Source: Tannockella kyphosi (GTDB lineage Bacteria > Bacillota_I > Bacilli_A > Erysipelotrichales > Coprobacillaceae). Taken from it: a stretch of 32,000 bases of DNA. Under the pieces are notes generated by a model. That model saw only the letters and a program-made list of their open reading frames with translations, made no database searches and had not been told where the DNA came from. Of the stretch, positions 11,209-31,956 are shown one piece after another (position 1 is the first letter of the stretch; the number at the start of each line of letters is the position of its first letter). The position numbers and the translations under genes are program-made. The stretch lies in contig NZ_CP088239.1 of NCBI RefSeq assembly GCF_021054785.1, positions 1,170,001-1,202,000 of the forward strand, written 5' to 3'.

Positions 11209-12246
11209 TTAATCTTTAAGAAGCATGATATTTGATTTTGCAACCGCTATAACGCCTTGACTTTCTTTTATTTGTGCAAATTTATCTTTTGATACTTCCA
11301 TTACAAAAGATAATTCTCCACCTCTAGGAACAATCGTTAAAAGGTAACTAAACAATCTTTCCGTAACATCTTGAATATGAAAATGAAAAGTAACAATCGA
11401 ATCATCTTCTATATCACTAGCATCGATATAATAGAAGTCATTTGCACGAATCCCCACATAACGAAACAATCGTGAAGTAGGATAATGGAATCGAAGATTT
11501 AATTGTTCTATTACGATAAATTCCCCATCTAATCTAGCAGGATATAGATTTTGACATCCTGTTAGTATCGCACTATCATAGGTTTGTGGATTTAAAAACA
11601 ATTCATGTTTTTCTTTCATAGCAAGATTTGATCCATTTGTAATAACAGAAACCTTATGACTAAGTCGATATACTTCATCTCGATTATGAGAAACAAATAG
11701 AACAGTCTTTCCATATTCTTCTAATGTTTGGAATAGCTCTTTTTCTAACTTATATTTTAAGAAACTATCTAATGCTGAAAATGGTTCATCTAACAAGATA
11801 ATAGTAGGACATGTAACAATCATACGAGCAAGTGCACAACGTTGTTTCTGTCCACCAGACAATTGATCAGGATATTGATGTTGTTGGCGTGTAAGTTGAT
11901 AATCTTCTAATACTTGGTCTAGTGTTTTGTGACAAGTTGGTTGATAAGCAATTGCTATATTTTGACGAACCGTCATATTAGGAAATAATGCATAGTCTTG
12001 AAACAACAAACCCACGTGACGTTCTTGTGGTGATAAATCGATTTTTTTCTCACTATCAAAGTATATACAATCATCTACCACAATAGTCCCAGAATCAGGC
12101 TTTTCAACACCTGCAATGCAACGTAGAATCAGGCTCTTTCCAGAACCAGAAGCTCCTAGAAGTGATAAAATCTCATTTTCACCAAAAAATTCAATATCCA
12201 ATTTAAAATTATCAAACTCTTTTTTTATCTTACAATAAATAGACAT
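11209..12246 (-). CDS. modC: Molybdate ABC transporter ATP-binding protein
   Basis: Walker A GASGSGKS, signature LSGGQKQRCALAR, Walker B ILLDEPFSALD and a C-terminal regulatory-type extension. The ATG at 12246 has AGGAGG 7 nt upstream, whereas the ORF-track start at 12252 is a GTG. Confidence 0.85.
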   Translation of the reverse strand: MSIYCKIKKEFDNFKLDIEFFGENEILSLLGASGSGKSLILRCIAGVEKPDSGTIVVDDCIYFDSEKKIDLSPQERHVGLLFQDYALFPNMTVRQNIAIAYQPTCHKTLDQVLEDYQLTRQQHQYPDQLSGGQKQRCALARMIVTCPTIILLDEPFSALDSFLKYKLEKELFQTLEEYGKTVLFVSHNRDEVYRLSHKVSVITNGSNLAMKEKHELFLNPQTYDSAILTGCQNLYPARLDGEFIVIEQLNLRFHYPTSRLFRYVGIRANDFYYIDASDIEDDSIVTFHFHIQDVTERLFSYLLTIVPRGGELSFVMEVSKDKFAQIKESQGVIAVAKSNIMLLKD

Positions 12247-12269
12247 AATCACTCCTCCTCCCTATTCTT

Positions 12270-12923
12270 TTACTTATCTTTTTCTAACATATTCACTGTT
12301 AACATAACAGCAAATGAAATAACTAAGTTAATCATTACCCAAAACATTGCCTGTGAGTCTTGCCCAGTCTGCCAATAGTAAGCAACAGTTGTTGAAATAG
12401 TTGCGGTACTGTTTTGAATAAAACCTGAAACCATCGATGTTGCACCATATTCACCAAGCCCTCGTGCAAAAGATAGAACAAAACCAGCAACAATTCCTGT
12501 CCGACAATTTGGTAGGATTATTTTACGGAAAATAACAGAGTTCTTTAGCCCCAATGTCTTTCCTGCATAGATCAGATTCTTATCCAGTTGCTCAAAAGAT
12601 CCTCTTGCTGTCCGATACATAATCGGAAATGTGATAATAATAACTGCAAAAATGGACGAATACCAAGTCATTGTTAATGTAATACCAAAATATTCATTAA
12701 TAATCGAACCTAAAAGACCATTAGGAGCAATAAACATAAGTAATATAAATCCAACTACAGTTGGTGGAAGTACCATTGGAATCGTTAATAGTGCATCTAA
12801 AACACCTTTGTATCCTCTTGGTAACTTAGTAATATAAAACGCAAACAAAACACCTAATATCAAAGTGAAAACACTTGATATTAGAGATATTCTTATTGAA
12901 TTATAAAGAGGAAATAAATCCAT
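12270..12923 (-). CDS. modB: Molybdate ABC transporter permease
   Basis: 217 aa with 5-6 TM segments and an EAA-like loop (YAGKTLGLKNSVIFRKIILP). It sits between modA and modC. Confidence 0.88.
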   Translation of the reverse strand: MDLFPLYNSIRISLISSVFTLILGVLFAFYITKLPRGYKGVLDALLTIPMVLPPTVVGFILLMFIAPNGLLGSIINEYFGITLTMTWYSSIFAVIIITFPIMYRTARGSFEQLDKNLIYAGKTLGLKNSVIFRKIILPNCRTGIVAGFVLSFARGLGEYGATSMVSGFIQNSTATISTTVAYYWQTGQDSQAMFWVMINLVISFAVMLTVNMLEKDK

Positions 12924-12947
12924 ATGTACACCACCCTTTCTATTTGG

Positions 12948-13760
12948 TTACTTTGCAGTAATTAATACTAATTCATTTGATAACAATTCATAGACATTAT
13001 CCTCATCAATATAACCTAACTCCTCTAGTGTCTCTACTTCACTAGTTGATGCTGATATAAAAATATCCGTTATAGCACCATATTGAATCTGTGATGATAA
13101 TGTCCCACTTGAATCAAAACTTGCTATAATCTCTACTCCTTCATGTTCTTCCATAAACATGTTCGAAATCTCACTAATCGACTCCATTAAACTAGCAGCA
13201 GCAAAAATAGTAATAGTACAAGCTTCTAACTCTACTTCTTGTTCTATTGATTCTTCTGGCAAATAGGTAAATCCATTTTCTTCAAAAATAGCTATTGCAG
13301 TTGCTGTTGTTAAATAGTCCATAAAACATTGAACTGCTTCTTGATTCATTGAATCATTCATAATAGCAGCTGGATAAATAACAGGACTCTCTAATAAAGA
13401 ACTATCGATTGTTTCAACTACATAAACACCATCACTTGTAATAGCATCCGTTGCATATACAATACCACAACTAACAGACCCTAGTTCTACTTGAGATAGC
13501 ACTTCTTTTACACTACTGGCATAAGAAATTTTACTTTCAATTTCATCCCATATACCATAATTTACTAAAGCTTCTTTGGCATAACGGCCAACTGGTACAT
13601 CATCATTACCAAGAGCGATAAGGGATACACTATCTGTTGTTAAATCTAAAAGAGATGTAAGAGTAGTTTCTTGATTACTTGTATTTGCACTACATCCATT
13701 CAGTAGTATCATTGTAGCTATTAAGAAAGTTACTGTTATATTTTTTATGTTTACTTTCAT
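12948..13760 (-). CDS. modA: Molybdate-binding lipoprotein ModA, circularly permuted
   Basis: Lipobox LLNGC. All ModA motifs are present but in swapped order (see finding). The ATG at 13760 is preceded by GAGGAGGGG, whereas the ORF-track start at 13781 is a TTG. Confidence 0.85.
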   Translation of the reverse strand: MKVNIKNITVTFLIATMILLNGCSANTSNQETTLTSLLDLTTDSVSLIALGNDDVPVGRYAKEALVNYGIWDEIESKISYASSVKEVLSQVELGSVSCGIVYATDAITSDGVYVVETIDSSLLESPVIYPAAIMNDSMNQEAVQCFMDYLTTATAIAIFEENGFTYLPEESIEQEVELEACTITIFAAASLMESISEISNMFMEEHEGVEIIASFDSSGTLSSQIQYGAITDIFISASTSEVETLEELGYIDEDNVYELLSNELVLITAK

Positions 13761-13789
13761 TATCTTCCCCTCCTCATTCAATTATCTTT

Positions 13790-14782
13790 CTAACCACCTA
13801 TTTGTGACATTGATTTTTGTTCACTACTTTCAATACCTTTTTCTAAAAAACCATGTGCTTTGGGTTTTCTTTGAATCGTTTTTATAATAGCATCTTCGAT
13901 TTCTTGATTAGAAGAACCATTTCTTAATAAAGATAATAAATCACTTCCAATATCATATTGTAAACATGTTTTTAAGTATCCTTTTGAACTTAGTCTAACA
14001 CGATTACAAGAATCACAGAACTTATGGCTAATAGCACTAATAAAACCAACTTTACCCATAAACCCTTCTACTTCAAAATAACGACTAGGACCATGACCTA
14101 ATTTTCCTTCGTATTCCTTTATTTTACCAAAGTTAGCAGTTAATAAATCTTTAATTCTTTGTTCTTGATCAATATATTGTTTATCATCATCGATCATTTC
14201 TTTTCCCATACCAATTGGCATTAATTCAATAAAACGAACATGTATATTTTTATTTTTTGCAAGCAATACAATGTCCATAATTTCTTGATCACTAATATTA
14301 TTAGAAACACAATTTGTCTTTAAATTAATATTTGGATACGCTAATACTTTATCCATGGATGATAACACATCTTCTATTTTACCACCTCTAGTAAGTAATG
14401 AAAAATGAGTAGCATCTAATGTATCCAAACTAACATTAATAGCATCTAAGCCAGCTTTACTTAACTTATCAATATTATCTTCTAATAATATTCCATTAGT
14501 AGTAATTGAAACAGATTCAATACCTTCTATTCCTTTTATCTCTTTAATTAATTGATCAATTCCTTTACGAACCAAAGGTTCTCCACCTGTGAGTTTGATT
14601 TTTTTTACGCCAAGCTTTGCAAAAATAGAACATAGTTTGATTATTTCATCATAACGAATAATTTCATCATGTGATATTTGTTCTATTCCTTTTTCCGGCA
14701 TACAATAGACACATCTTAAATTACATCGTTCCGTCACAGAAATACGAACATAATCAATATTTCTTCCATAATTATCTATCAT
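13790..14782 (-). CDS. moaA: GTP 3',8-cyclase (radical SAM, Moco biosynthesis step 1)
   Basis: YVRISVTERCNLRCVYCMP radical-SAM motif, C-terminal FCDSCNRVRLSSKGYLKTCL cluster motif and a GG tail. Confidence 0.95.
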   Translation of the reverse strand: MIDNYGRNIDYVRISVTERCNLRCVYCMPEKGIEQISHDEIIRYDEIIKLCSIFAKLGVKKIKLTGGEPLVRKGIDQLIKEIKGIEGIESVSITTNGILLEDNIDKLSKAGLDAINVSLDTLDATHFSLLTRGGKIEDVLSSMDKVLAYPNINLKTNCVSNNISDQEIMDIVLLAKNKNIHVRFIELMPIGMGKEMIDDDKQYIDQEQRIKDLLTANFGKIKEYEGKLGHGPSRYFEVEGFMGKVGFISAISHKFCDSCNRVRLSSKGYLKTCLQYDIGSDLLSLLRNGSSNQEIEDAIIKTIQRKPKAHGFLEKGIESSEQKSMSQIGG

Positions 14783-14809: not shown

Positions 14810-15241
14810 CTATTCAAGAATTTTTAAAATATCCCCTTCTTTAATAGAACCACCTTCTAATACAATCGCAAAGACACCTTCTCTAGGCATAATGCAATCA
14901 CCCATTTTTTTAAAGATTTCACATCCATGATGACATTGTTTTCCTATTTGTGTTAATTCTAATAATACATCATTGCAAGCAAATTTTGTACCTATTGGTA
15001 ATGTTTTAAAATCAATTCCTTCTACTAAAAGATTTTCTCCAAAAGAACCATCTACAATAGGTGCTCCTAAATTACGAAACTCCTCTACTTTATCAAAACT
15101 TAATAAACTTACTTGACGATGCCAATTACCAGCATGAGCATCATTTTCAATACCAAAATTAACAATAAAATTTGCTTGATGAATATTTTGTTTTTGAACT
15201 CCTTTTTTTTCACTAATACATACTGCTTTTACCATTCCCAT
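14810..15241 (-). CDS. Stand-alone MOSC-domain protein
   Basis: 143 aa. MVKAVCISEKKG...HRQVSLLS...GENLLVEG...IGKQCH is typical of short MOSC proteins found in moa operons. Confidence 0.75.
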   Translation of the reverse strand: MGMVKAVCISEKKGVQKQNIHQANFIVNFGIENDAHAGNWHRQVSLLSFDKVEEFRNLGAPIVDGSFGENLLVEGIDFKTLPIGTKFACNDVLLELTQIGKQCHHGCEIFKKMGDCIMPREGVFAIVLEGGSIKEGDILKILE

Positions 15242-15259: not shown

Positions 15260-16252
15260 TTATTTTAAGTTTGCTCTTACTAGAATTAATTGAGCTGCAA
15301 TACTAATTGCTATTTCAGCTGGTGTTTCACTTTTAATAGAAATACCTATTGGTGTTGTAATACGACTTATATCTTCTTCATTAAATCCTTTTTCCATTAA
15401 CTTTGCTTGTACTGTTTTAATTTTACTACGACTTCCAACCACTCCGATATAACAAGCAGGTGTTTTTAAAGCAAACTCTTGGACGTATTGATCTCCTAAG
15501 TGACCTCTAGTTACAGCGATAATATAATCATGGTTAGTGACTTGATAATATGCTTGATATTCCATCAATTGTTCATAATGACAAACATTCGTATCAATTG
15601 CATCTGGAAACAACTCTTTTTTACTAAAGTCTTCGCGATCATCACTAACAATACAACGAAATCCTAAATGTGATAAAACTGGTACTAACTCTTGAGCTAA
15701 ATGTCCTCCACCAAAAATAAAGACACGACTTTTGTTTTCAATCTTGTGGACATAATAGCAATCTTGTCCTACTTTCATTAGACCTGCTTGTAAGTTATTA
15801 CAATCAATTCCTGTTATCCCTATTATTTCATCTTCATAGCAGTATCCCACTTGCATACCATCCATCGATAAAACAAGCCAACCTAATTGATTAGAGACCA
15901 TATGATTTGTTAATGTTTCAATCAAAGAAGCATCTTTTTGATAAGAAATGTAACTGAATAATACATCTACATCTCCTCCACATACCATACCTAAATTTGC
16001 TGATTCCTCAATTCGTAAACGATACTGTTTTAACTCCCCTGTTTTGTTTTGTAAATGTATTTTGGCTAATTCAATTGATTGAAATTCCAACATCCCACCA
16101 CCAATAGTACCACTCATTAACCCATCTTTATCCACTACCATAAATGCTCCCGTAGTTCTAGGTGCACTACCAACATTATCAACAATTGTTACTAACATAC
16201 AATCTTCACTAACATCTAATTTTTTAGTTAACGATCTTATTATTTCTTTCAT
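15260..16252 (-). CDS. XdhC/CoxI-family molybdenum cofactor insertion/maturation chaperone
   Basis: XdhC_CoxI N-domain (VGSAPRTTGAFMVVDKDGLMSGTIGGG) plus a Rossmann-like C-domain (VFIFGGGHLAQELV). The ATG at 16252 follows the upstream stop and a GGGGAAAAAG RBS. Confidence 0.85.
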   Translation of the reverse strand: MKEIIRSLTKKLDVSEDCMLVTIVDNVGSAPRTTGAFMVVDKDGLMSGTIGGGMLEFQSIELAKIHLQNKTGELKQYRLRIEESANLGMVCGGDVDVLFSYISYQKDASLIETLTNHMVSNQLGWLVLSMDGMQVGYCYEDEIIGITGIDCNNLQAGLMKVGQDCYYVHKIENKSRVFIFGGGHLAQELVPVLSHLGFRCIVSDDREDFSKKELFPDAIDTNVCHYEQLMEYQAYYQVTNHDYIIAVTRGHLGDQYVQEFALKTPACYIGVVGSRSKIKTVQAKLMEKGFNEEDISRITTPIGISIKSETPAEIAISIAAQLILVRANLK

Positions 16253-16262
16253 ACTTTTTCCC

Positions 16263-17294
16263 CTATTTCCCGAATCCACAATTCGGGAAAGTACAAATAT
16301 CACAACCTAAACAAAGTCCACCTTCACCTAGTCTATCTATCATTTCTCTATTTATTGGCACATCTGCCATTACTTTTGGTAAAACAAGATCAAAAATAGT
16401 TCGTTTTGCATACATTACACATCCAGGTAACCCCATTATTGGTTTATTATCTTTTGAATATGCCATCAAGAACATTGCTCCTGGTAATACTGGTGCCCCA
16501 TAAGTAATAATAGTAGCTCCACTATTTTTAATAGATAATGGTGTTTTATCATCTGGATCCACACTCATCCCACCAGTACAAATAATCATATCAACACCTT
16601 TATCTAACATATCTTGAATAATAAGGGTTATTTTTTCAAAATCATCATCTACTATTTCATGAAGTACCATTTCTCCACCAAACTCTGCTAGTTTATCTTG
16701 AATAACTGGAGTAAAGGTATCTTGAATACGTTTATGATAAATTTCATTACCTGTTGTGATAACACCATATTTCTTCGTTTGAAAAGGAATCACATTTAGT
16801 AATGGTTCTCCATTAGAAACCTTTACTACTGTTTCTTTTGCCTTTTCCATCTTTTCTTTTTCTATTACCAAAGGAATAATACGAGTTCCTGCAAGTTTGT
16901 CTCCCTTTTTAACAGCAAAACCACCATGTCTAGATGCAATCATCATTTGTCCAAAAGAATTAATAGCGTTTATCCCTTCTTTATGAACACATAACAAACC
17001 ATCACAATTTGCAATCAATTCTATTTTTCCTTCTTTTACTTTTCCAGCAACAATATTACTACCCATTGCTAGTTCCTTAAGAATCTCTGCTGCATCATTT
17101 TCATGTAACATCGTTTCATCATTTTCACAAATATAAATATGATCTTTTCCAACAGACAATAAAACAGGAATATCCTCTTCTTTTATTAGATGCCCTTTTG
17201 AAAAAACAACATCTTTTGTAACCCCTCTTATAATTTGAGTAATATCGTGATATAACACTTGTCCTACTGCATCCACCGTTTTGATACTTTTCAT
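16263..17294 (-). CDS. Molybdopterin-binding (MoCF_BD/MoaB-MogA-like domain) protein with a C-terminal Cys cluster
   Basis: VITTGNEIY...MIICTGGMSVDPDDKTP is a MoCF-binding domain signature. The C-terminus is CLGCDICTFPNC. GGGAGG lies 7 nt before the ATG at 17294. The ATG at 17300 overlaps the upstream TGA and is also possible. Confidence 0.7.
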   Translation of the reverse strand: MKSIKTVDAVGQVLYHDITQIIRGVTKDVVFSKGHLIKEEDIPVLLSVGKDHIYICENDETMLHENDAAEILKELAMGSNIVAGKVKEGKIELIANCDGLLCVHKEGINAINSFGQMMIASRHGGFAVKKGDKLAGTRIIPLVIEKEKMEKAKETVVKVSNGEPLLNVIPFQTKKYGVITTGNEIYHKRIQDTFTPVIQDKLAEFGGEMVLHEIVDDDFEKITLIIQDMLDKGVDMIICTGGMSVDPDDKTPLSIKNSGATIITYGAPVLPGAMFLMAYSKDNKPIMGLPGCVMYAKRTIFDLVLPKVMADVPINREMIDRLGEGGLCLGCDICTFPNCGFGK

Positions 17295-17296
17295 TT

Positions 17297-18376
17297 TCAT
17301 TCCTCCCTAATAAAAGCATTCCTTATTTTTTCTTCTACCTTTAATGCTTGTAAATATCGTTCTTGATGTTTTTCAATTGCTTCTTGCGTGCAACATTTAC
17401 GAAGACTTGCTTCAAATCTTTGTTGTAAGGATACCCTTAATGTTCCTTGTACTAATTTATCTGCATAATACAAAATCATTGCCTCATCTAATAATGCATC
17501 ACCTTTGATATCATGATGAAGTTGGATAATAGACCCTAATTGAATATATCCTAAATGATATAATTGTTCCTTTGCTAGTAATGGATGATCTTTGCCATGA
17601 TGACGCATCATATCATGTAACAAAGCACTAGTTAGAAGCAATTCTTTATCCAATGAACATTGATCTTTTAATAATTCATATAATTCAAGGCAAACACGTT
17701 GTACCTCATAGCTATGTTCTATGACTACTTGTGGTGTTTTACATTGAAAGAATATTTGTTCTATTTCTTGATGACTAGGGATTGAATCCCTTTTTTTATT
17801 TATTGCAACAAAGTTCCACTTCTTTTCCTCTATTTCCACTACACTAAGAGTTCCATAATCAACACGTGGCATTCCATCTTTACAAGGATCTAAATTTTCT
17901 AATTTATGTACTAACGCTCGTATTAATCCATCATGAATAACAAGCACTAAGTCACTAGATTTATTTAAAAGTAAGAACTGTATTGTTTTGATAAGGCGGT
18001 TTACACCATCTTCTAATGTCTCCCCATTACTAGGGACTATCGACCAATCTTTTCCTCTTTGTTGATAAAGAGTTGGATATAGTTCTTGAATTTGTTGGAA
18101 TGTCTTTCCTTCAAAATCTCCCATATCTAATTCTTGCAAAGAAACAATTGGTTGATATTTTTGTTGAACAGAAACCATTTCTAAAGCACTTTGATAACTC
18201 CTTGCTAGATTACTACAATAAATAGTGTCGATGTTTGAAAAACAATCTTTCCATACTCTTACTTGTTCTTTCCCTTCTTTTGATAAAAACAAGTCTGTTT
18301 GACTACCTATACAGATTTTCTTTCCCTCTTTAAATAGTGGTTTTCCATGACGAATTAAATAAACATATCTTTTCAT
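17297..18376 (-). CDS. Fusion protein: histidine-phosphatase (PGM/CobC-like) N-domain + HD-domain phosphohydrolase C-domain
   Basis: N-domain: YLIRHGKP (RHG motif), SNLARSYQSA, VIHDGLIRAL. C-domain: ALLHDMMRHHGKDH...QLHHD...YYADKL, the HD metal-binding pattern resembling YqeK-type HD hydrolases. Confidence 0.7.
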   Translation of the reverse strand: MKRYVYLIRHGKPLFKEGKKICIGSQTDLFLSKEGKEQVRVWKDCFSNIDTIYCSNLARSYQSALEMVSVQQKYQPIVSLQELDMGDFEGKTFQQIQELYPTLYQQRGKDWSIVPSNGETLEDGVNRLIKTIQFLLLNKSSDLVLVIHDGLIRALVHKLENLDPCKDGMPRVDYGTLSVVEIEEKKWNFVAINKKRDSIPSHQEIEQIFFQCKTPQVVIEHSYEVQRVCLELYELLKDQCSLDKELLLTSALLHDMMRHHGKDHPLLAKEQLYHLGYIQLGSIIQLHHDIKGDALLDEAMILYYADKLVQGTLRVSLQQRFEASLRKCCTQEAIEKHQERYLQALKVEEKIRNAFIREE

Positions 18377-18389: not shown

Positions 18390-19232
18390 CTACTGCTTTA
18401 TAATAATTGCAGTTCCATGCAAATCACAAAGTTCTACTAATACCAATGATCCATATTCTTTTTCATAATCCTCAACTGCTTTTTTAACTCCTTGAAATCT
18501 TTGATTCCCATAATCATGTAATAAAATAATAGCTCCTTTATTCATTCTTTTAATAAACCACTTTAATCCTTCATAAGTAGGTGTATAAAGATCTACATCA
18601 ATACTAACTAAAGCAAAGGTTTCTTCTATCCCGATTGTTGTATCTGGAAAATAACCTTCTTTTATAATTACCTGACTAGGATTCGATAATTTTTCTAAAA
18701 CCATTTGAATACTAGTATTTTGAAATTCTTCTTTATATGCTTTTGATAATCCTGTTTCATTTTCCATTTGAATATCTCGTTCATCAAAACCATTAAATGT
18801 ATCAAATAAATATAATTTTCTTCTAGGAAAAACTGCATTTAATACTTTAGAGAATTCTCCTTGAAAAACTCCTAATTCCGCTACTGCTCCTTCGATATCT
18901 TTTAATCTATCTTTTAATTTGATAGTAAAAGCACTACGAATATCAATTGCTTCTATTAATTTGGTTATTTCAATAATTTCTTTATTATAACCATTATGAT
19001 GTAATTGTTTGATTATTTCAGTTTGACGTTCTATTCCTGTAACAGCCACTAAAATAACATCAATAGGCAATAATAATGCTTCTTCCATTGTATAAAGAGG
19101 AATATTTTTAATCATTGTTTGTTCTTTCTTTGCATTATCACCAAAACCTATTAAATGATAATGTTTTTGATTGATGAGAGGTAATACTGCTTGACCCATC
19201 TGTCCTGCTCCAAAAATTAATAAATTTTTCAT
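18390..19232 (-). CDS. TylF/MycF-family class I SAM-dependent O-methyltransferase with an N-terminal Rossmann-like extension
   Basis: ELGVFQGEFS...LYLFDTFNGF...SIDVDLYTPTYEGL...ILLHDY matches the macrocin-O-methyltransferase family pattern. The N-terminus is LLIFGAGQMGQAV. The ATG at 19232 follows AGGGGGA and the upstream TAA. Confidence 0.65.
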   Translation of the reverse strand: MKNLLIFGAGQMGQAVLPLINQKHYHLIGFGDNAKKEQTMIKNIPLYTMEEALLLPIDVILVAVTGIERQTEIIKQLHHNGYNKEIIEITKLIEAIDIRSAFTIKLKDRLKDIEGAVAELGVFQGEFSKVLNAVFPRRKLYLFDTFNGFDERDIQMENETGLSKAYKEEFQNTSIQMVLEKLSNPSQVIIKEGYFPDTTIGIEETFALVSIDVDLYTPTYEGLKWFIKRMNKGAIILLHDYGNQRFQGVKKAVEDYEKEYGSLVLVELCDLHGTAIIIKQ

Positions 19233-19233
19233 T

Positions 19234-20184: not shown

Positions 20185-20208
20185 CGAATTATATTTTTTT
20201 ACAATTCG
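20185..20208. promoter_or_regulatory. 9-N6-9 inverted repeat, candidate operator for the ModE-type domain
   Basis: CGAATTATA-tttttt-TACAATTCG, with half-sites identical at 8 of 9 positions. It occupies the spacer and -10 of the operon promoter. Confidence 0.4.
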
Positions 20209-20216: not shown

Positions 20217-20219
20217 AGC

Positions 20220-20251: not shown

Positions 20252-20264
20252 TATTTTTTATTCT

Positions 20265-24954: not shown

Positions 24955-24957
24955 CAC

Positions 24958-25452
24958 TTATTCCTCCTTTCCATTAATTGAGCTAATTGCTTCTAAAACA
25001 CGATATTGACTAATACATCTGCATAAATTTCCTGATAATGCTTCAGAAATATCTTCTTCTGTAGGGTTTGGATTACGGATAAATAAAGCTCTAGCCGCAA
25101 TTACAATACCTGGTGTACAGAATCCACATTGGAATGCAGAATAATCAAAAATAGCTTGTTGAATAGGGTCTAATTTCCCAGTTACTGGATCAGCAAGACC
25201 TTCAATTGTAACGATCTTCTTCCCTTCACATTCCACTGTTAAAGTGACACATGAAGCTTCTGCTTTATCGTCAATAAGCACTGCACAAGCACCACAGCAC
25301 CCTTCACCGCAACTTAATTTTGTACCTGTTAATCCAAGACGTTCACGAATTGTATTTACCAATAATTCATTGGTAGGAATTTGCCCCATCTTGTCGCCAA
25401 TCATAAATTCATAGTCTTTACCATTGACATTTAGTGTTACAGTATCTCTCAT
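24958..25452 (-). CDS. Module 1 [2Fe-2S]x2 small subunit
   Basis: Contains CGEGCCGAC...C and FQCGFCTPG...CRC motifs. AAGGAGG RBS. Confidence 0.93.
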   Translation of the reverse strand: MRDTVTLNVNGKDYEFMIGDKMGQIPTNELLVNTIRERLGLTGTKLSCGEGCCGACAVLIDDKAEASCVTLTVECEGKKIVTIEGLADPVTGKLDPIQQAIFDYSAFQCGFCTPGIVIAARALFIRNPNPTEEDISEALSGNLCRCISQYRVLEAISSINGKEE

Positions 25453-25534
25453 AATTTCCTCCTTAATTATTTATTTTTGATATCATACTTTTTCTTTATT
25501 TAAAACATTCCATCTTGTTTTATTATTTAATTGC

Positions 25535-25578
25535 TTGATAACATTATTTTTTAGTGCTATCATTAGTCACAAGACTAA
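25535..25578 (+). promoter_or_regulatory. TetR gene promoter with an overlapping inverted repeat (candidate TetR operator)
   Basis: TTGATA (25535-25540), 17 nt of spacer, TATCAT (25558-25563). The inverted repeat TTAGTC-acaa-GACTAA (25563-25578) sits at the predicted transcription start. Confidence 0.45.
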
Positions 25579-25590
25579 GAGGGCAAAATA

Positions 25591-26244
25591 ATGACACAAC
25601 CAACTAAAAAACAAATAACACATGAAAAGATACTAACAAGTGCCATCTACTTATTTTCAATTTATGGTTACGAAGGCACTACCACTCGTATGCTTTCAAA
25701 AGAATCTGGATATAATATTTCAACTATTTTCCATCATTTTGAAAACAAAGAAGGTTTATATATTGCCGCCATGAATCATATGGCCCAAGAAATGAATAGC
25801 CATTTACTCCCAACAACGATCAAAGTAAATAAACGACTTGAAGAAGAGTGTTCTATTGAAGAAGCATGGGAATTAATTGAAGAATTCATTACACTTCTTG
25901 TTATGACATTATCTAGTCCTACTCAAAAGAATACATTCTTTCTACTAATCAGAGAACAAACTAGTCCTCCAAAAGGAGACTTCCCACTCTCTCGAGTAAT
26001 CTATGACAATGTAGAACATCCAATTAAAAACTTACTTCAAAGAATATACCCAGATATAACTCATACTACCCTTGCTTTGCATGCTAGAATGATTACTGGT
26101 GGAATCATTTCCCAAGTAGAACACCCAGTGTTTTTACGCTGGATGTTAGGTCTACCAGACGACGCTGATATAAAACCTCGTGTTTGGGAAAAAGTAAAAG
26201 ATTTATGTATGATATATATAAATACCGATTTAAATAACGATTAA
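25591..26244 (+). CDS. TetR/AcrR-family transcriptional regulator
   Basis: The N-terminal HTH region ILTSAIYLFSIYGYEGTTTRMLSKESGYNISTIFHHFENKEGLY is classic TetR_N. Confidence 0.9.
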   Translation: MTQPTKKQITHEKILTSAIYLFSIYGYEGTTTRMLSKESGYNISTIFHHFENKEGLYIAAMNHMAQEMNSHLLPTTIKVNKRLEEECSIEEAWELIEEFITLLVMTLSSPTQKNTFFLLIREQTSPPKGDFPLSRVIYDNVEHPIKNLLQRIYPDITHTTLALHARMITGGIISQVEHPVFLRWMLGLPDDADIKPRVWEKVKDLCMIYINTDLNND

Positions 26245-26705
26245 GCGTGTGGTGGAATACCAAGCGCTTTTTTTACTAATGGAATACCTGTACATAATCC
26301 AATATTTTGTGATAACCAAGTTAAGAATAATGATAATGGATAAGATGCTACTACTGATGCTACATAGAAATCTTGGTAACCAGGAACATCTTTCATTCCC
26401 CACCAAGTCATGAATGAACTCATAATAGTAGCCATAATTAATGCCACTAATACAGTAGATACTAATTGATGTTTAATATCTCTTCTGTCTAATTTAAATA
26501 AATCACCAAACTTATTCCCTAAAGGAGCAATTGGTAAGAATGTCATTAAAATAAACCCTATAATAACACCTAATACATAACTACTTGCAAAACTAGATAA
26601 TGTTAAACCTGTTCCATTTGCAATAGGTACAATTGTATTTAAGAAAATATTTAAAATCAACGATACCCACGCATTTAATAATACATCAAACTTTGTTATT
26701 TTCAT
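26241..26705 (-). CDS. Small integral membrane protein (about 4 TM, two-repeat appearance; possibly DUF2798-like)
   Basis: 154 aa with four hydrophobic segments. GGGAGG lies 7 nt before the ATG at 26705. Its stop overlaps the TetR stop. Confidence 0.55.
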   Translation of the reverse strand: MKITKFDVLLNAWVSLILNIFLNTIVPIANGTGLTLSSFASSYVLGVIIGFILMTFLPIAPLGNKFGDLFKLDRRDIKHQLVSTVLVALIMATIMSSFMTWWGMKDVPGYQDFYVASVVASYPLSLFLTWLSQNIGLCTGIPLVKKALGIPPHA

Positions 26706-26722
26706 TTGTCTGCCTCCCATGA

Positions 26723-26764
26723 CAAAAAGCCCAGAATACTCTCTATTATTTAGTTTTCTAGGCT
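26723..26764 (-). terminator. Terminator downstream of hydroxylase module 2
   Basis: Minus-strand stem AGCCUAGAA / UUCUGGGCU (one G-U pair) with a 19-nt loop, followed by UUUUUGU. Confidence 0.45.
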
Positions 26765-26777
26765 TTTAACGAATTTA

Positions 26778-29144
26778 TTATTTTACTGCTAAAATATTAC
26801 GAATTACTAAAGCTTTGATTTCAGTAATTTTATAATTATTATGTTCCATTGCAATTGCATCTTTAATAGCAAGAGCTCCAGCACTTTCAGCTACTTCTTC
26901 ACTAATCGCTTTACCTTTTAAGAAAGCTTCTACTTCATCTAATTTATATGGTACTGGTGCAACTCCACCTAATACTAATTTAGCATCTTCAATAACTCCA
27001 TCTACTACTTTGAAAGCAGAAGATAAACTTACGATTGCAAAATCCATCCCATCACGGACACGGAATTTATCATAACTAGAAGTATATCCTTCTAATACTG
27101 GTACTTGAATTTCAGTTACTAATTCACCATGTTCTAACATATCTTTTGTTTTTAGTTTTGTAGTAAAGAAGTCAACAGCTTTGATTTCTTTTTTAGTAGT
27201 AACAATTGTTCCATCTAACATCACTAATACTGGTGAAATATCAGAAGCATTTACTGAGTAACATCCACAATTCATACAACGTTTTGCTTCTTTTGAAGCT
27301 AATTCAAGAGATAATGATTTTTCATCTTCATCCACTAATGTACGACTAGCTACAGGAAGTTCTTCTAACTTACAAGATTCTTCTACTTTTACACCTTCTA
27401 CATCAAAAGTCTTATAACCTTTTTCAGATGCTTCACGTTTGATTGGATATCCCATTTTTGCACTCATAGAATGAGCTGCTAAGTTACCTGCATGAATTGC
27501 ACGAATTGCAATATTAGGTCCTGTAACAACATCCCCACCTGCAAAGAATTTTTCATTTTTAGTTTGATAAGTTTCTTCATCTACTTCTAATAAACCACGT
27601 TCTGATTTAATTTGAGAAGCGAACTCATCACCTAAGAAGTCTACGTCTACACGTTGACCTGTTGCTAAGATAATACTATCTGATGTAAATACAGTAGTTT
27701 CATCATGATCATATACTGGTGCAAAACGATTTTTTTCATCAAAAACACTTACGCATTTCATTGATTCTAAACCACTTACTTTTCCATCGGCATCTTTGAT
27801 AACACCTTTTAGACCCCAACCATTTTCAATTTCAATACCTTCTTCTAAAGCTCTTGCAATTTCTTCTTTTGTTGCAGGCATTGCTTCTCTTGATTCAAGA
27901 CATACTAATTTAACACTCTTAGCTCCTAAACGTCTTGCTGTTAATGCTACGTCCATCGCAACATTACCACCACCACAAACTAATACGTTTTCACCAGTAG
28001 CTTTTTGTAAGAATGTATTTACATCTTGTAAGAAGTCTAAACCAAATTGAGTTAATTCTTCTCCTGTAATACCTAATACTGGTTGTTTCCAAGCACCTGT
28101 ACCAAAGAATACAGTATCAAAACGCCCTTCCACTTCTTCCATTGATATTTCTTTACCAACAGTAGTATTCATTTCAAAAGTAACTCCCATACCTTCCAAA
28201 GCACTTGCATATCCTTCTACAATATCCTTAGGTAAACGATAATGAGGAATACCATACATTAATACCCCACCAGCTTTTTCATGAGAATCAATCACAGTAA
28301 CACTATGTCCTTGACTTCTTAAATAATAAGCAGCAGTTAAACCACCAGGACCAGCTCCAATAATACCAACAGATTTACCTGTTTCAGCTTTTGGTGCTAC
28401 ATAGAATTTTTCTTTATTTTCTAAAATATAATCTCCTAATGTACGTTCCACACAGTGAATAGCTACGCTATCACCATTTTTATCATGGTTACATCTGTCT
28501 TCACAAGGATGTGGACAAATTCTTGAAGTACACATTGGCATTGGGTTTACACGCATAATTATTTTTGCAGCTTCATCCCAGTTCCCTTTTCTAATTTCAC
28601 CCATATAAGAGGAAACATCAGTTCCAGCAGGACAACCTTTTGTACAAGCACTAGTTACAATTTTCATACCACCAAATACAGAATGATAACGATTTTCTCC
28701 TAATACTGCAAAACATTCTTCTCCACCTTTTTGTTGACATACCATTTTCCCACCAACATCTTCAGGATAACGATAATACCAACAACGAACATCTTGACAA
28801 ACATTCCCACCAATAGTTGCAGAATTACGAACTAATGGAGTTGCTACCGATTTTGCAGCTTGGCTTAACGCTGGTGCCCCAGCTAATAATTCTTCTGATT
28901 TTTCTAAGCAACCTAACTTTGTGATAGCACCAATTTTAATAGTCCCATCTTGTGCAGTTACATAAGATCCACCATCTACTTTTCTTAAACTTACTAATTC
29001 TTCTGGATATTTTGTTAAAATATCACTTTTTAATTCAAAAATTAAATCTGTACCACCAGAAACTGGTACACTATTTTCATTTGCTTTTATTATTTCTGCA
29101 GCTTCATCAAATGATTTTGCAGATTTGTATCCAAATTTTTTCAT
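26778..29144 (-). CDS. Module 2 flavoprotein: same CoxM-FAD / four-Cys loop / GltD-like mosaic as module 1
   Basis: Collinear with 20265-22616: VSGGTDL, ATIGGNVCQDVRCWYYRYP, CTKGCPAGTDV, IIGAGPGGLTAAYYL, VCGGGNVAMDVA, FAGGDV, CMNCGCYS, ASDISPVLVMLD, LGGVAPVPYK. Confidence 0.85.
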   Translation of the reverse strand: MKKFGYKSAKSFDEAAEIIKANENSVPVSGGTDLIFELKSDILTKYPEELVSLRKVDGGSYVTAQDGTIKIGAITKLGCLEKSEELLAGAPALSQAAKSVATPLVRNSATIGGNVCQDVRCWYYRYPEDVGGKMVCQQKGGEECFAVLGENRYHSVFGGMKIVTSACTKGCPAGTDVSSYMGEIRKGNWDEAAKIIMRVNPMPMCTSRICPHPCEDRCNHDKNGDSVAIHCVERTLGDYILENKEKFYVAPKAETGKSVGIIGAGPGGLTAAYYLRSQGHSVTVIDSHEKAGGVLMYGIPHYRLPKDIVEGYASALEGMGVTFEMNTTVGKEISMEEVEGRFDTVFFGTGAWKQPVLGITGEELTQFGLDFLQDVNTFLQKATGENVLVCGGGNVAMDVALTARRLGAKSVKLVCLESREAMPATKEEIARALEEGIEIENGWGLKGVIKDADGKVSGLESMKCVSVFDEKNRFAPVYDHDETTVFTSDSIILATGQRVDVDFLGDEFASQIKSERGLLEVDEETYQTKNEKFFAGGDVVTGPNIAIRAIHAGNLAAHSMSAKMGYPIKREASEKGYKTFDVEGVKVEESCKLEELPVASRTLVDEDEKSLSLELASKEAKRCMNCGCYSVNASDISPVLVMLDGTIVTTKKEIKAVDFFTTKLKTKDMLEHGELVTEIQVPVLEGYTSSYDKFRVRDGMDFAIVSLSSAFKVVDGVIEDAKLVLGGVAPVPYKLDEVEAFLKGKAISEEVAESAGALAIKDAIAMEHNNYKITEIKALVIRNILAVK

Positions 29145-29158
29145 TTTCGTCTCCCCCC

Positions 29159-31450
29159 TTACGCTTTACCTAAAGCTTTTAAAATTGCTGCAGGTGTTGC
29201 AGGATATTCAATAAAGTCTTTTCCAATTGCGTTAGAAATAGCCATTGAAACTGCTGAAGGACCAGGAGCACCTGAGATTTCTCCAAATCCAATTGCTTTG
29301 AATGGAGATATATCATATTGTGATTCTAAGATTACGGAATTGAATTCAGGGAATTCATTAAATAATCTCCACTTGTAATCAATCATATTAGCAGTCATTA
29401 AACGACCTTGTGTTGTATCTAAGACATGTCCATCAATTAAACCTGTGTCTAATGCTGCAGAACCAATACATCCTTGGAATTGTAATTCTAATGTTGCTGG
29501 ATCTAACATTTGACCTACATCAGTACCACCAGTTACATTAATTAATGTAGTTTCTCCAGTATCAGTATCTACTTCTACTTCTACAAATAACATACAGAAG
29601 TTAGGAATAGCAAATTGTTCTTCATATTTACCAACTCCAGTCATTGTATGACCAAATCCAATGATTGGCATCCAAGGAACACGTACTTCTGGTTTATCTT
29701 TTAAATAAATAAATCCATCTTCCGTATCTACTGCTTCTACTGGGCAGTGTAAGAATGCTGCACCTTTTTCTAATAATTCTTGTTTTACTTTTTTAGCAGC
29801 TTCCCCAACTGCAGTACTTACAACGATAGTCCCTCTTGATCCTACTAATCCAAATTCATGAGGATTTACTAAGTTATCTGCATCTGTAATTCTTACTTTT
29901 TCAAAAGGCATATTTAAGATTTCTGCTGCTGCTTTAATAGCTTGGTTTCTTTGCCCTTGTCCTGCTTCTGCTACTGTACAATGTACAACTGCATACCCAT
30001 AAGGTTCCAAACGAACATATGCTTCTGAACAGTCTTCACCAACATCACAGTTACCATGTAAACCGACACCAACACCACGTACTTTTGAACCATTTACAGA
30101 AGTTGGTTTATACCATCCTTTGAATTTGTCAGCCCACTCAAATTTTTGTGCTGCTTGAGTCATAGCTGGACGATAGTCTGCATATTTACATACCCAGTTA
30201 GTACCATCTCTCCAAGTATATGGATCTCCTTCTTTTACAAAGTTGTTTTTATAAAATTCTACAGGATCTAAATCAAGTTTGGCTGCACATTGTGAAATAA
30301 TAGGCATTAACGCTGATTTTAATTCTTGTCCACCAAATCCACGAACTACCCCTGCAGGTTCTTTGTTTGTATAATAAATATCTGCTTTAAAGTCCCAGTT
30401 TTTACACTTAGCACATACTAATTGCATTTCTCCTAGACCTACACCCATTTGTGCTTGTCCAATATCATTACAACTTCCTGTGTCAATCATCCAGTTCCCT
30501 TGCATTGCATGAACTAAACCATCTTTAATACCAACCTTCAAAGTCATATGAGAACCTAAACGAGTTTCATAAGCTAATAATTGTTCTGATTTCGTATAAA
30601 TGAATTTTACAGGTCTATTTGTTACTAACGCTAATGCGGATGCATGCATACACATACAAGTAATGTGATTTTTATTACCATAAGAACCACCTACGTTGAA
30701 ACTTTCAGAACGTACAATAACATCTGGCATTTTTGTTGATAATTGAATTCTAAGTAAGTTTGGACTTTGACTAGAAGCTCTAATATATAAGTTTCCTGGT
30801 TCTGTCCATTGTGCTAATACTGCAGGTGTTTCCGGAGCTAATGGTGCATGAGATGCACTATATGATGCAGTTCCTTCTACAACAGCGTCACATTCTTCAA
30901 ACGCTGATTCTACATCACCTTTATCAATATGTTTAAACTCTACCCCATGTTCTCCTAATGGAAACCCTGGTAATCCAATCCCATAAGGAACTTTGTTTCC
31001 AGGAATATGATCATAAAATTGAATTGCATCTGGTTGTGATGATTCCATCGGTGTATAATATGGTTTTAATATTTCATATTCTACCTTAATTAATTTTAAT
31101 GCTTCTTCCGCAATTTCAGGAGTTTCCGCAGCAACGGTTGCAACTGGATCCCCTACATAACGAAGTCTACGATCAAAAATTGGTTTATGATATGGAAATC
31201 CTAAAGACCATTCTTTACATTCTTCTGGTAAGTTTTCCAAACATAAAACAGCTTTAACCCCATCCACTTTTTGTGCTTCACTAATATCAATACTTACGAT
31301 ATTTGCATGAGGATGTGGACTTTTTAACATTTTTGTATATAACTGACGAGGTAAGTTATAGTCATCTAGAAAAGTTGCTCTACCTGTTACGATATCTCTT
31401 GCTTCTCTTCTTGGTGTGTTCTTACCGACATAACGATAATCTGGTTTCAT
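29159..31450 (-). CDS. Module 2 molybdopterin-binding large subunit (XDH/CoxL family)
   Basis: Motifs GKNTPRREARDIVTGRATFLDD, LKSPHPHANI, GGSYGNK, VRGFGGQE and GFGEISGAPGP. The start ATG shares one nucleotide with the stop of the small subunit (TAATG). Confidence 0.9.
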   Translation of the reverse strand: MKPDYRYVGKNTPRREARDIVTGRATFLDDYNLPRQLYTKMLKSPHPHANIVSIDISEAQKVDGVKAVLCLENLPEECKEWSLGFPYHKPIFDRRLRYVGDPVATVAAETPEIAEEALKLIKVEYEILKPYYTPMESSQPDAIQFYDHIPGNKVPYGIGLPGFPLGEHGVEFKHIDKGDVESAFEECDAVVEGTASYSASHAPLAPETPAVLAQWTEPGNLYIRASSQSPNLLRIQLSTKMPDVIVRSESFNVGGSYGNKNHITCMCMHASALALVTNRPVKFIYTKSEQLLAYETRLGSHMTLKVGIKDGLVHAMQGNWMIDTGSCNDIGQAQMGVGLGEMQLVCAKCKNWDFKADIYYTNKEPAGVVRGFGGQELKSALMPIISQCAAKLDLDPVEFYKNNFVKEGDPYTWRDGTNWVCKYADYRPAMTQAAQKFEWADKFKGWYKPTSVNGSKVRGVGVGLHGNCDVGEDCSEAYVRLEPYGYAVVHCTVAEAGQGQRNQAIKAAAEILNMPFEKVRITDADNLVNPHEFGLVGSRGTIVVSTAVGEAAKKVKQELLEKGAAFLHCPVEAVDTEDGFIYLKDKPEVRVPWMPIIGFGHTMTGVGKYEEQFAIPNFCMLFVEVEVDTDTGETTLINVTGGTDVGQMLDPATLELQFQGCIGSAALDTGLIDGHVLDTTQGRLMTANMIDYKWRLFNEFPEFNSVILESQYDISPFKAIGFGEISGAPGPSAVSMAISNAIGKDFIEYPATPAAILKALGKA

Positions 31451-31956
31451 TATTCTTCGCCTCCTGAATTTTCAGCTACATATTTTACTGCATCAATAAC
31501 ATGATATTGGCTAATACAACGACAATAATTTCCTGATAAGCCTTCTTTGATTTCATCATCATTTGGATGTGGATTTTTATTTAATAACGCTTTTGCTGCC
31601 ATGATAATACCTGGTGTACAAAAACCACATTGAAATGCATAATAATCAATAAATGCTTGTTGTAAAGGATCTAGTTCACCAGTTACTGGATCTTCTAATC
31701 CTTCAATTGTAACGATAGAACTTCCATCACAATCTAAAGTAAGTGTGTTACAAGAAGTAATTGCATCACCATCCATAATAACAGTACAGCAACCACATGC
31801 TCCTTCCCCACAAGACTCTTTTGAGCCAGTTAATCCGATTCGTTCACGTAATGTAAACGATAATGTTTCAGAACATGCCACTTGGCCGTGTCCATCTCCT
31901 ACTGAGAAAGCATATTCTTTTCCATTAACAATAATACTAATCATACTTGCTTCCAT
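31450..31956 (-). CDS. Module 2 [2Fe-2S]x2 small subunit
   Basis: Motifs CGEGACGCC...C and FQCGFCTPG...CRC. AGGAGG RBS upstream of the ATG at 31956. Confidence 0.92.
   Translation of the reverse strand: MEASMISIIVNGKEYAFSVGDGHGQVACSETLSFTLRERIGLTGSKESCGEGACGCCTVIMDGDAITSCNTLTLDCDGSSIVTIEGLEDPVTGELDPLQQAFIDYYAFQCGFCTPGIIMAAKALLNKNPHPNDDEIKEGLSGNYCRCISQYHVIDAVKYVAENSGGEE

Follow-up and report, generated by a model that had tools for sequence, protein, structure and literature searches.

Two putative Uxd-type molybdenum enzyme modules beside a cofactor-maturation and molybdate-uptake cassette in the fish gut anaerobe Tannockella kyphosi

Two tandem modules of the xanthine dehydrogenase family

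We analyzed a 32-kb window of the genome of Tannockella kyphosi (the whole stretch, to which window-wide statements below refer), an Erysipelotrichia isolate and fermentative gut anaerobe from a herbivorous marine fish that eats brown and red algae. The subject of this report is an island of 18 open reading frames (ORFs; 11209 to 31956) that consists, in order, of a three-gene enzyme module (module 2), a gene for a small membrane protein, a TetR gene on the plus strand, a second three-gene module (module 1), and ten accessory genes for molybdenum cofactor (Moco) maturation and molybdate uptake. Genes were placed from an ORF map, and domains were called by Pfam and NCBIfam searches of the window proteins. 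An initial annotation of this DNA had already listed these genes with their order, domains, and a promoter; all 18 ORFs were recovered at the same coordinates and on the same strands, and Pfam and NCBIfam agreed with the domains. Of ten window proteins compared by exact sequence, eight matched RefSeq entries of T. kyphosi; the Mo subunit of module 1 gave no exact match, probably owing to a differently called start codon. Related loci and contigs, including metagenome contigs, were fetched by homology searches and are designated L001 to L029.

Both modules are encoded on the minus strand. Module 2 comprises an F subunit predicted to bind two [2Fe-2S] clusters (31450 to 31956; 168 amino acids [aa]; Fer2_2, E = 2.6e-28; exact match to WP_249028533), an O subunit predicted to bind substrate and Mo as molybdopterin cytosine dinucleotide (MCD) (29159 to 31450; 763 aa; Ald_Xan_dh_C, MoCoBD_1, and MoCoBD_2), and a long flavoprotein, the C subunit (26778 to 29144; 788 aa; FAD_binding_5 at residues 3 to 117, Fer4_20 at 165 to 243, Pyr_redox_2 at 258 to 553, and CO_deh_flav_C at 691 to 763). 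Module 1 repeats this set, with a 2×[2Fe-2S] F subunit of 164 aa (24958 to 25452; Fer2_2, E = 1e-25; exact match to WP_249028528), an MCD/Mo substrate-binding O subunit of 774 aa with the same Pfam domains as its module 2 counterpart (22633 to 24957), and a long C subunit of 783 aa, called by Pfam and 100% identical to a T. kyphosi "FAD-dependent oxidoreductase" (20265 to 22616). Both O subunits scored above the gathering scores of PF01315, PF02738, and PF20256 (an a/b-hammerhead and two Moco-binding domains), both F subunits matched Fer2 and Fer2_3 in addition to Fer2_2, and both C subunits matched PF00941 and PF03450. By this domain content, the two modules belong to the xanthine oxidase/dehydrogenase (MCD) family. 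The active-site glutamate is kept as well: G-V-G-E-I of module 1 O aligns with G-L-G-E-I of Kdh (6-hydroxypseudooxynicotine dehydrogenase) and with S-E of 4-hydroxybenzoyl coenzyme A reductase (4-HBCR), and module 2 O has G-F-G-E-I at the aligned position.

The Mo subunits of the two modules were 46% identical to each other and the flavoproteins 55%, and each module was nearer to modules of other organisms (63 to 77% identity) than to its partner, suggesting that the two are old paralogs. The description of the locus as carrying two diverged xanthine dehydrogenase (XDH)-family modules with an NAD(P)H-type flavoprotein was borne out. The best nonself homologs of module 2 O were 90% and 63% identical. 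More than 2,300 significant Mo-subunit homologs were scored in the search, and the full fusion that makes up the C subunit was present in all 120 flavoprotein matches listed (at least 120 homologs). Sources of homologs included Syntrophales, Smithella, Desulfobacteraceae, Dehalococcoidia, Acetobacterium, Oscillospiraceae, Lachnospiraceae, and Mogibacterium. A module of Enterocloster citroniae (L004) was 58% identical to the window in its C subunit, 66 to 67% in its F subunit, and 45% (module 1) or 46% (module 2) in its O subunit. In this locus (12436 to 14127) and in L005 of Gemmiger (12498 to 14054), the long C gene is followed by a second, shorter flavoprotein-like gene (518 to 563 aa) whose product has Fer4_20 and CO_deh_flav_C without Pyr_redox_2 and which has no counterpart in the window. 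A 62%-identical ortholog of module 2 was also found in an apparent Gram-negative genome (L023; ENA ERZ21862645, 1 to 17715), flanked by a TetR/CecR regulator, a resistance-nodulation-division (RND) efflux pump with an outer-membrane factor, a PAS histidine kinase, and a sigma-54 activator; such neighbors suggest that the module has spread horizontally and is connected with the handling of xenobiotic or aromatic compounds.

No module subunit approached an NCBIfam equivalog cutoff. The top NCBIfam match of both Mo subunits was XdhA_XDHase, at scores of 298 and 277 against a cutoff of 780, and pucD scored 232 and 216 against 784, placing the modules outside the XdhABC/PucCDE group. Se_dep_XDH reached 173 and 139 (cutoff, 830), and YqeB, YqeC, and SelD were absent from the window proteins. 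The 4-HBCR equivalogs (TIGR03194, TIGR03195, and TIGR03193) likewise stayed far below their cutoffs (alpha, 282/241 versus 995; beta, 137/135 versus 405; gamma, 144/156 versus 258), so the modules do not qualify as 4-HBCR on these models. The initial annotation had noted a lack of ssnA, ygeW/X/Y, hyuA, nicotinate-pathway genes, and selD/yqeB/yqeC; we found none of them among the window proteins.

The long flavoprotein and the probable direction of the reaction

The C subunit is an XDH-type FAD subunit, with FAD_binding_5 at its N terminus and CO_deh_flav_C at its C terminus, split by an insertion of ~465 residues in which Pfam placed Fer4_20 and Pyr_redox_2 in both modules. The closest solved relatives of this insertion (module 1 C residues 160 to 625) were NAD(P)H-FAD-2×[4Fe-4S] modules of the NfnB, GltD, and dihydropyrimidine dehydrogenase type. 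Residues 24 to 156 of module 1 C aligned with the beta subunit of 4-HBCR (HcrB), and residues 113 to 141 matched the [4Fe-4S]-binding loop of that subunit, which is found in PaoB also. In an alignment of 119 full-length flavoprotein homologs (52 to 100% identical), twelve cysteines of module 1 C (113/118/133/141, 164/168/207/211/215, and 618/621/623) were invariant in 117 to 119 of the 119 sequences, a pattern that predicts three [4Fe-4S] clusters.

We propose an electron path in which NAD(P)H would reduce the FAD of the NfnB/GltD-like insertion, the two [4Fe-4S] clusters of the insertion would carry the electrons onward to the third [4Fe-4S] cluster on the HcrB/PaoB-type loop, and the electrons would then pass to the XDH-type FAD and to the two [2Fe-2S] clusters of the F subunit. 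At the end of this chain, the Mo-MCD center of the O subunit would reductively take a hydroxyl group off an aromatic or heteroaromatic substrate. Given that the O subunits share 46% identity, the two modules are expected to act on different substrates or ring positions. The insertion could alternatively mark a bifurcating or confurcating complex, in which NAD(P)H and ferredoxin or flavodoxin together supply low-potential electrons for a Birch-like aryl dehydroxylation. Among the solved relatives of the insertion are NfnB, a subunit of the bifurcating Nfn enzyme (4ylf_B and 5jca_L), an entry named NfnA (9n5u_A), and subunits of bifurcating formate dehydrogenase complexes; 4-HBCR is known to require low-potential ferredoxin, and a flavodoxin gene is present at positions 154 to 732 of the window. 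However, that gene lies in an unrelated gene neighborhood at a distance of 10 kb, the modules encode no second acceptor or donor subunit, and in GltD and dihydropyrimidine dehydrogenase this type of module simply conducts electrons along one linear path. In addition, NADH alone suffices for dehydroxylation by Ucdh (PMC12771579), an enzyme discussed below. We consider electron bifurcation by the modules to be very unlikely.

The closest characterized system is uxdFOC, the operon for the 10-hydroxy-urolithin dehydroxylase of Enterocloster; work published in November 2025 demonstrated this activity in Clostridium sporogenes expressing the operon (PMC12658268). Both T. kyphosi modules have the F-O-C gene order published for uxd, and their C subunits resemble UxdC, in which a 4Fe-4S domain and an additional FAD/NAD(P) domain account for the extra length (PMC12658268). 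Uxd and the modules are further alike in being cytoplasmic enzymes of anaerobic Bacillota and in having an XdhC and a MOSC protein as MCD accessory proteins, which are coexpressed with Uxd (PMC12658268). In contrast, the window contains two tandem modules where Enterocloster has one uxd beside ucd, a TetR regulator takes the place of Crp/Fnr, and the host is an Erysipelotrichia bacterium of the marine fish gut. The O subunits are also less than 50% identical to UxdO by the published bound for non-Enterocloster RefSeq proteins (<50% to UxdO and <57% to UxdC; PMC12658268), with Uxd compared here by its description and through the E. citroniae module, a probable paralog.

A second Enterocloster system, Ucd/Ucdh, the 9-hydroxy-urolithin/urolithin C dehydroxylase of Enterocloster bolteae, is likewise an XDH-family, NAD(P)H-using reductive dehydroxylase (PMC11760930, PMC12771579), and in vitro the purified Ucdh removes a hydroxyl group from urolithin C with NADH (PMC12771579). 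The ucd genes are flanked by TylF methyltransferase genes that are induced by urolithin C (PMC11760930) and neighbored by a small membrane protein, and nine MCD/molybdate genes ("cluster II": moaAC, mogA, moeA, modABCE, mocA, and xdhC) are coinduced with ucd. By analogy, Enterocloster is a precedent for the whole picture of a dehydroxylase with TylF, a small membrane protein, and a coregulated molybdate/MCD cluster. The systems differ in that the FAD subunit of Ucd is short and ordinary, the ucd gene order is C-F-O, the T. kyphosi cassette lacks moaC and mogA, and a His-phosphatase/HD protein encoded in that cassette goes unmentioned in either study (PMC11760930 and PMC12771579). With these systems at hand, the earlier statement that the gene set matches no characterized pathway is outdated: the module type is that of uxdFOC (PMC12658268), and the Enterocloster dehydroxylases with their coinduced molybdate/MCD cluster and flanking TylF genes counter it further (PMC11760930, PMC12771579). 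The suggestion made at the same time, of a reductive dehydroxylase acting on urolithin-type compounds, fits uxdFOC, and the word "hydroxylase" in the title of the initial annotation names the less likely direction.

HcrABC, the 4-HBCR of Thauera aromatica (1RM6), is a reductive aryl dehydroxylase whose alpha subunit was the best PDB match of module 2 O (1rm6_A; E = 2e-53) and whose FAD subunit shares the inserted cysteine loop. It differs in using ferredoxin, in having no NfnB/GltD-like insertion, and in the equivalog scores given above. The selenium-dependent Mo hydroxylases, including DOPDH, are also XDH-family enzymes of gut anaerobes, and DOPDH is a precedent for an anaerobic enzyme of this family working in reverse, as it removes the 6-hydroxyl of urate (bioRxiv 10.1101/2025.04.24.650524). 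Unlike the modules, the selenium-dependent enzymes have an XdhAC architecture, make no use of NAD(P)H, depend on SelD and YqeB/YqeC, and are encoded alongside ssnA, ygeW/X/Y, hyuA, and ygfK; the window contains none of these genes.

Its architecture groups the locus with the Uxd-type branch of the reductive dehydroxylases in the XDH family. We interpret the region, with moderate confidence, as two anciently diverged Uxd-type three-subunit MCD enzymes together with a general cassette, transcribed on its own, that serves MCD maturation and molybdate uptake. By analogy with the Enterocloster enzymes, the modules probably strip hydroxyl groups from aromatic compounds. Urolithin specificity itself cannot be transferred to them, and a shared substrate specificity is unlikely because the Mo-subunit identity is below 50%.

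Several observations weigh against this interpretation. No enzyme this close has been assayed, as the bounds published for UxdO (<50%) and UxdC (<57%) indicate (PMC12658268). In the E. citroniae locus L004, the 7 kb upstream and the 11 kb downstream contain no ucd, suggesting that the module there is probably a paralog and not uxd itself. Whereas module 2 O was nearest to 4-HBCR, the best PDB match of module 1 O was the oxidative Kdh (149 bits), followed by 4-HBCR (144 bits) and by carbon monoxide dehydrogenase (CODH) and Qor (~140 bits); with the two modules split in this way, likeness to solved structures does not fix the reaction direction. The [4Fe-4S] loop is carried by the oxidative PaoB and by an aldehyde oxidase too, and the equivalent of HcrB Cys155 is a tyrosine here, another upstream cysteine (Cys113) being invariant instead. 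Ucdh functions without the long insertion, which is thus not required for dehydroxylation as such. Finally, no gene of the window points to a substrate pathway.

Some of these observations fit modules that are oxidative hydroxylases or dehydrogenases of N-heterocycles, purines, aldehydes, or similar compounds, in which electrons would leave Mo by the same chain to NAD(P)+. Oxidative enzymes make up most of the characterized family, XdhA_XDHase ranks first among the NCBIfam models for both Mo subunits, the nearest solved structure to module 1 O is Kdh with Qor and CODH about equal to 4-HBCR, and the oxidative loop-bearing enzymes and the conserved catalytic glutamate accord with such a role. 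Nevertheless, the XdhA match falls far under its cutoff (298 versus 780), and genes for downstream catabolism of purines, nicotinate, or other compounds are missing from the window. The known clostridial hydroxylases need no such insertion to couple to NAD(P) or ferredoxin, and the sole characterized enzyme with the exact gene order and the long C subunit is a dehydroxylase. An oxidative role is therefore unlikely in our assessment, although it keeps a real share of the probability, and we favor Uxd-type reductive dehydroxylation.

The accessory operon and its conservation

Module 1 is separated from the accessory genes by one of only two intergenic gaps of >100 nt in the island. This gap contains a sigma-70-type promoter on the minus strand (20188 to 20216; TTGATA-17-TATAAT, 11/12 consensus positions), which is followed by an AGGAGG ribosome binding site and an ATG. 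Promoter-like sites overall were no more common than chance (99 found versus 95 expected from shuffled sequence), and this site was the best in the 20 kb scanned. The gap also holds a 14-bp perfect hairpin (20220 to 20251, minus strand; minimum free energy of −22 kcal/mol, z = −6.3) that is terminator-like on the plus strand and has a weak U-tract on the minus (coding) strand. At 20215 to 20256, a 14- to 19-bp near-perfect palindrome, ATAGCATCATAAT-N6-ATTATGATGCTAT, abuts the −35 box of the promoter. The hairpin is likely a terminator or 3′ stabilizer of module 1 but could also be an operator for the product of the first accessory gene. The palindrome was considered as a repeated operator and set aside: there is no second copy in the window, and the sole relative that covers it is of the same species. 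Together, the hairpin and the 11/12 promoter indicate that module 1 and the accessory genes are probably separate transcription units, supporting the separate promoter proposed earlier for this tightly packed ten-gene cofactor and molybdate operon.

All ten accessory genes lie on the minus strand. The first (19234 to 20160) encodes a 308-aa fusion of a MocA-type cytidylyltransferase (NTP_transf_3 at residues 6 to 160, E = 3e-28; N-terminal motif VAAGMSSRMG, where AAGxSxRMG is expected) with a ModE-type helix-turn-helix (HTH) domain (HTH_1 at 220 to 278). Its MocA domain matched the N-terminal half of NF045665 (the DVU_1551 family NTP transferase) at 183 bits and TIGR03310 (MocA) at 117 bits against a cutoff of 186, and the same fusion is present in L002, L005 to L008, L012, L026, and L028. 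The name "MocA-ModE fusion" holds insofar as MocA is fused to a ModE-type HTH, but only the HTH is there, without the molybdate-binding Mop domain. The second gene (18390 to 19274; probable start at 19232, giving 280 aa) encodes a TylF-like S-adenosylmethionine-dependent methyltransferase (TylF, E = 4e-15) with an N-terminal PglD_N/C2185-like Rossmann domain (PglD_N, E = 2e-5), whose best PDB matches were sugar or macrolide O-methyltransferases. The third product is a 359-aa fusion of a CobC-like His-phosphatase and an HD phosphohydrolase (17297 to 18376; His_Phos_1, E = 3e-32; HD, E = 4e-8) in which the catalytic motifs RHG and HD are present and the HD half matches the C-terminal half of NF045665.

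The fourth gene encodes a MoeA-related molybdopterin-binding protein of 345 aa (16263 to 17300; MoCF_biosynth at residues 179 to 309), here called the MoCF protein. Its residues 130 to 310 aligned with MoeA of Pyrococcus horikoshii (E = 3e-8), its C terminus is rich in cysteine, and it was the most conserved accessory protein, at 62 to 68% identity across families. No MoeA C-domain was detectable in it, its N-terminal ~175 residues found no match even in a relaxed Pfam search, and a single-sequence AlphaFold model was uninformative (predicted local distance difference test score of 31). There follow an XdhC-family insertion/sulfuration chaperone (15260 to 16303; XdhC_C and XdhC_CoxI; 283 bits against a cutoff of 350 for NF045664 [XdhC_rel_AOR] and 160.7 against 161.6 for TIGR02964), a stand-alone MOSC-domain protein of 143 aa (14810 to 15241; E = 4e-11) whose ortholog in L005 and L012 is a MOSC-MogA fusion of ~310 aa, and the GTP 3′,8-cyclase MoaA (13790 to 14782; TIGR02666 at 348 bits, above the cutoff of 284).

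The operon ends with genes for molybdate transport. ModA, a putative molybdate-binding lipoprotein (12948 to 13781; TIGR01256 at 148 bits, above the cutoff of 62.5; lipobox LLNGC), has its halves swapped: residues ~36 to 172 matched ModA positions 124 to 254, and residues ~188 to 275 matched positions 6 to 90. The canonical order was found in L001, L005, L006, L008, and L012, and the permuted gene also in the same-species contig L024; judged by its sequence, the protein is a natural circular permutant, that is, a ModA family member of noncanonical topology. The permease ModB (12270 to 12923; TIGR02141 at 181 bits against a cutoff of 182.6) and the ModC-like ATP-binding cassette ATPase (11209 to 12252; ABC_tran; TIGR02142 at 170 bits against 285) were named from context. 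L024, a metagenome contig of 99.8% nucleotide identity, carries the entire accessory operon, and its gene calls give shorter products for TylF (280 aa), XdhC (330 aa), MoCF (343 aa), and ModA (270 aa).

In the maturation scheme that these genes suggest, ModABC would import molybdate, MoaA would start the pterin, the MoeA-like protein would handle Mo-molybdopterin, and MocA would add CMP, while MOSC and XdhC would serve cofactor sulfuration and insertion and the His-phosphatase/HD protein would act at or beside the MocA step. The MoaC, MoaD/E, MoeB, and MogA steps would be encoded elsewhere in the genome. A tblastn search with the L005 orthologs found neither MoaC nor a MogA domain in the window, both of which are present in the cassettes of relatives, and every island ORF of at least 80 aa is assigned, so that none remains as a candidate for MoaD/E or MoeB. 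With MoaA, the MoeA-like protein, MocA, and XdhC as its only pathway genes, the island does not hold a complete Moco/MCD pathway, and its earlier portrayal as self-contained fails on this point.

Conservation of the cassette was assessed by tblastn of the window proteins against 21 loci retrieved by homology to the module 1 flavoprotein; a full-length homolog is present in 20 of them. In the clade 57 to 60% identical to this flavoprotein (Roseburia, Gemmiger, Enterocloster, and metagenome-assembled genomes labeled Selenomonadales, Oscillospiraceae, and Bacteroides), the C gene is followed by MocA(-HTH) and then His-phosphatase/HD in all eight loci that are long enough. Further genes (MoCF, XdhC, MoaA, MOSC, and ModABC) come after them as far as the contigs reach, with two in L004 and the full set in the Gemmiger loci, and L001 repeats the order MocA, TylF, His-phosphatase/HD, and MoCF. 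In the clade of 48 to 51% identity (10 loci), no cassette was present within 10 kb, and TetR lay beside the module in 7 loci. The initial annotation had tied the accessory genes to such modules, and their co-occurrence in other genomes indicates that the juxtaposition is not fortuitous. Its term "dedicated" proved too strong: elsewhere the same cassette stands beside aldehyde oxidoreductase (AOR)-type enzymes with fused Fer2-Mo subunits (L026 and L027) and a split nicotinate-dehydrogenase-like enzyme (L029), and no client was visible in L028. The cassette is conserved and widely shared, and it is general rather than dedicated to Uxd-type enzymes, since it also serves other XDH-family enzymes. 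In L026 (6611 to 17680) and L027 (1 to 8019), the cassettes beside AOR-type enzymes share an additional recurring gene set, which encodes a ~750- to 790-aa Fer4_20/NAD-binding/CCG dicluster oxidoreductase, a DUF7479 protein, a radical-SAM protein with Zn_ribbon_HMPTM, a class I methyltransferase, an AMP-binding enzyme, and a C_GCAxxG_C_C protein and looks like an uncharacterized maturation or partner system.

The other clients (AOR-type and nicotinate-dehydrogenase-like), the ten module loci of the 48 to 51% clade that lack a nearby cassette, and the operon's own promoter would also be expected if enzymes and operon were chance neighbors, with the operon supplying Moco cell-wide and no special link between them. 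Yet in the clade closest to module 1 the cassette comes directly after the C gene in 8 of 8 informative loci, Enterocloster coinduces such genes with its dehydroxylase, and MocA and XdhC serve MCD-type (XDH-family) enzymes specifically. We regard a chance association as highly improbable. Among named families, the accessory proteins resemble the Desulfovibrio-type AOR accessory set (NF045665 and NF045664), MocA corresponding to the N-terminal half and HD to the C-terminal half of NF045665 and XdhC being closest to NF045664. In NF045665, however, MocA and HD are on one gene, whereas the window splits MocA-HTH and His_Phos-HD over two, and the scores are under the cutoffs.

The His-phosphatase/HD gene follows MocA, directly or with TylF between them, in all 8 module loci that have MocA, and it lies by MocA or XdhC in all 4 further contexts (L026 to L029). 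Its homologs are few (60 matches), and five of them are His_Phos-MocA-HD triple fusions, the domain order seen in L026. These data are strong genomic evidence for a predicted role of the protein at the cytidylylation step, where it might carry out pyrophosphate (PPi) or nucleotide hydrolysis, editing, or dephosphorylation. Literature searches yielded nothing about the DVU_1551 family or a connection between HD and MocA. The TylF gene is in or near 5 of the 20 module loci, and a metagenome scan with TylF returned only 2 loci, neither linked to Mo genes; its linkage to Mo enzymes is recurrent, not universal. A 39%-identical homolog was found in a CMP-sugar/glycan cluster beside cytidylyltransferases, with no Mo genes nearby. 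Candidate roles for the TylF-like enzyme are O-methylation of phenolic substrates and a reaction on a cytidine-nucleotide-linked molecule. In L028 (9043 to 9759), a class I methyltransferase other than TylF is encoded between His-phosphatase/HD and XdhC, indicating that methyltransferases of different families recur in MCD cassettes.

A more speculative proposal is that MocA, the TylF-like protein, and His-phosphatase/HD build or edit a modified cytidine-dinucleotide Moco for anaerobic XDH-family enzymes, which may, for example, be O-methylated on the nucleotide or trimmed or proofread by phosphohydrolysis. This idea derives from the synteny of His-phosphatase/HD with MocA in every context examined and the triple fusions, from the fusion of HD to MocA in the DVU_1551 family, and from the nucleotide-sugar-type N-domain of the TylF-like protein, whose 39%-identical homolog again stands beside CTP-dependent cytidylyltransferases. 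We rate the proposal as improbable.

Regulatory features, surroundings, and significance

A TetR-family regulator (25591 to 26244, plus strand; TetR_N, E = 7e-12) is encoded divergently from module 1 and would probably render expression substrate inducible. The 138-nt gap between them (25453 to 25590) serves as a putative divergent control region, with promoter-like sites at 25535 to 25563 (plus strand) and 25572 to 25543 (minus strand) and no strong palindrome. Of the 20 related module loci, 8 likewise have a TetR gene adjacent to F (L001, L009 to L011, L014, L015, L017, and L020). The small integral membrane protein of 159 aa (26241 to 26720, minus strand; ~4 hydrophobic segments) had no Pfam or NCBIfam match, even in the relaxed Pfam search, and no homolog in L001 to L021; a role in substrate uptake or export is possible. 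A terminator-like hairpin downstream of the module 2 C gene (26725 to 26767, minus strand; 16-nt arms, 88% complementary) touches the annotated start of this ORF, leaving its true start and promoter uncertain, and the protein is called as 156 aa in L022. That contig, from a related species at 81% nucleotide identity, keeps module 2, the small membrane protein in the same place, TetR, and module 1; the island arrangement is thus conserved in a related species.

We found no evidence that the region is a mobile island: the window has no integrase-type boundary, and the shift in GC content is slight. An Rfam search of the window matched no family, the Moco riboswitch included, and there was no tRNA. 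Outside the island, a gene pair at 2755 to 4463 (plus strand) encodes a 230-aa protein with only a weak NifU_N-like match and a GGGtGRT-family protein (PF14057, E = 1.6e-194), and it sits between the enolase and rsmH genes.

XDH-family phenol dehydroxylases were recognized only in 2025, in a few human gut Enterocloster species. The T. kyphosi locus and its thousands of homologs (48 to 65% identical) from gut, sludge, and sediment anaerobes show that the Uxd-type architecture represents a large, almost wholly uncharacterized family. The linkage and fusion of His-phosphatase/HD to MocA point to an undescribed component of MCD maturation, which could explain the frequent failure of heterologous expression of these enzymes, and the permuted ModA, as a naturally occurring circular permutant, adds interest to the locus. 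As a cultured organism with a 2.26-Mb genome and two modules, T. kyphosi could be tractable for substrate discovery, and our own guess is that the substrates are phenolics from the brown- and red-algal diet of its host.

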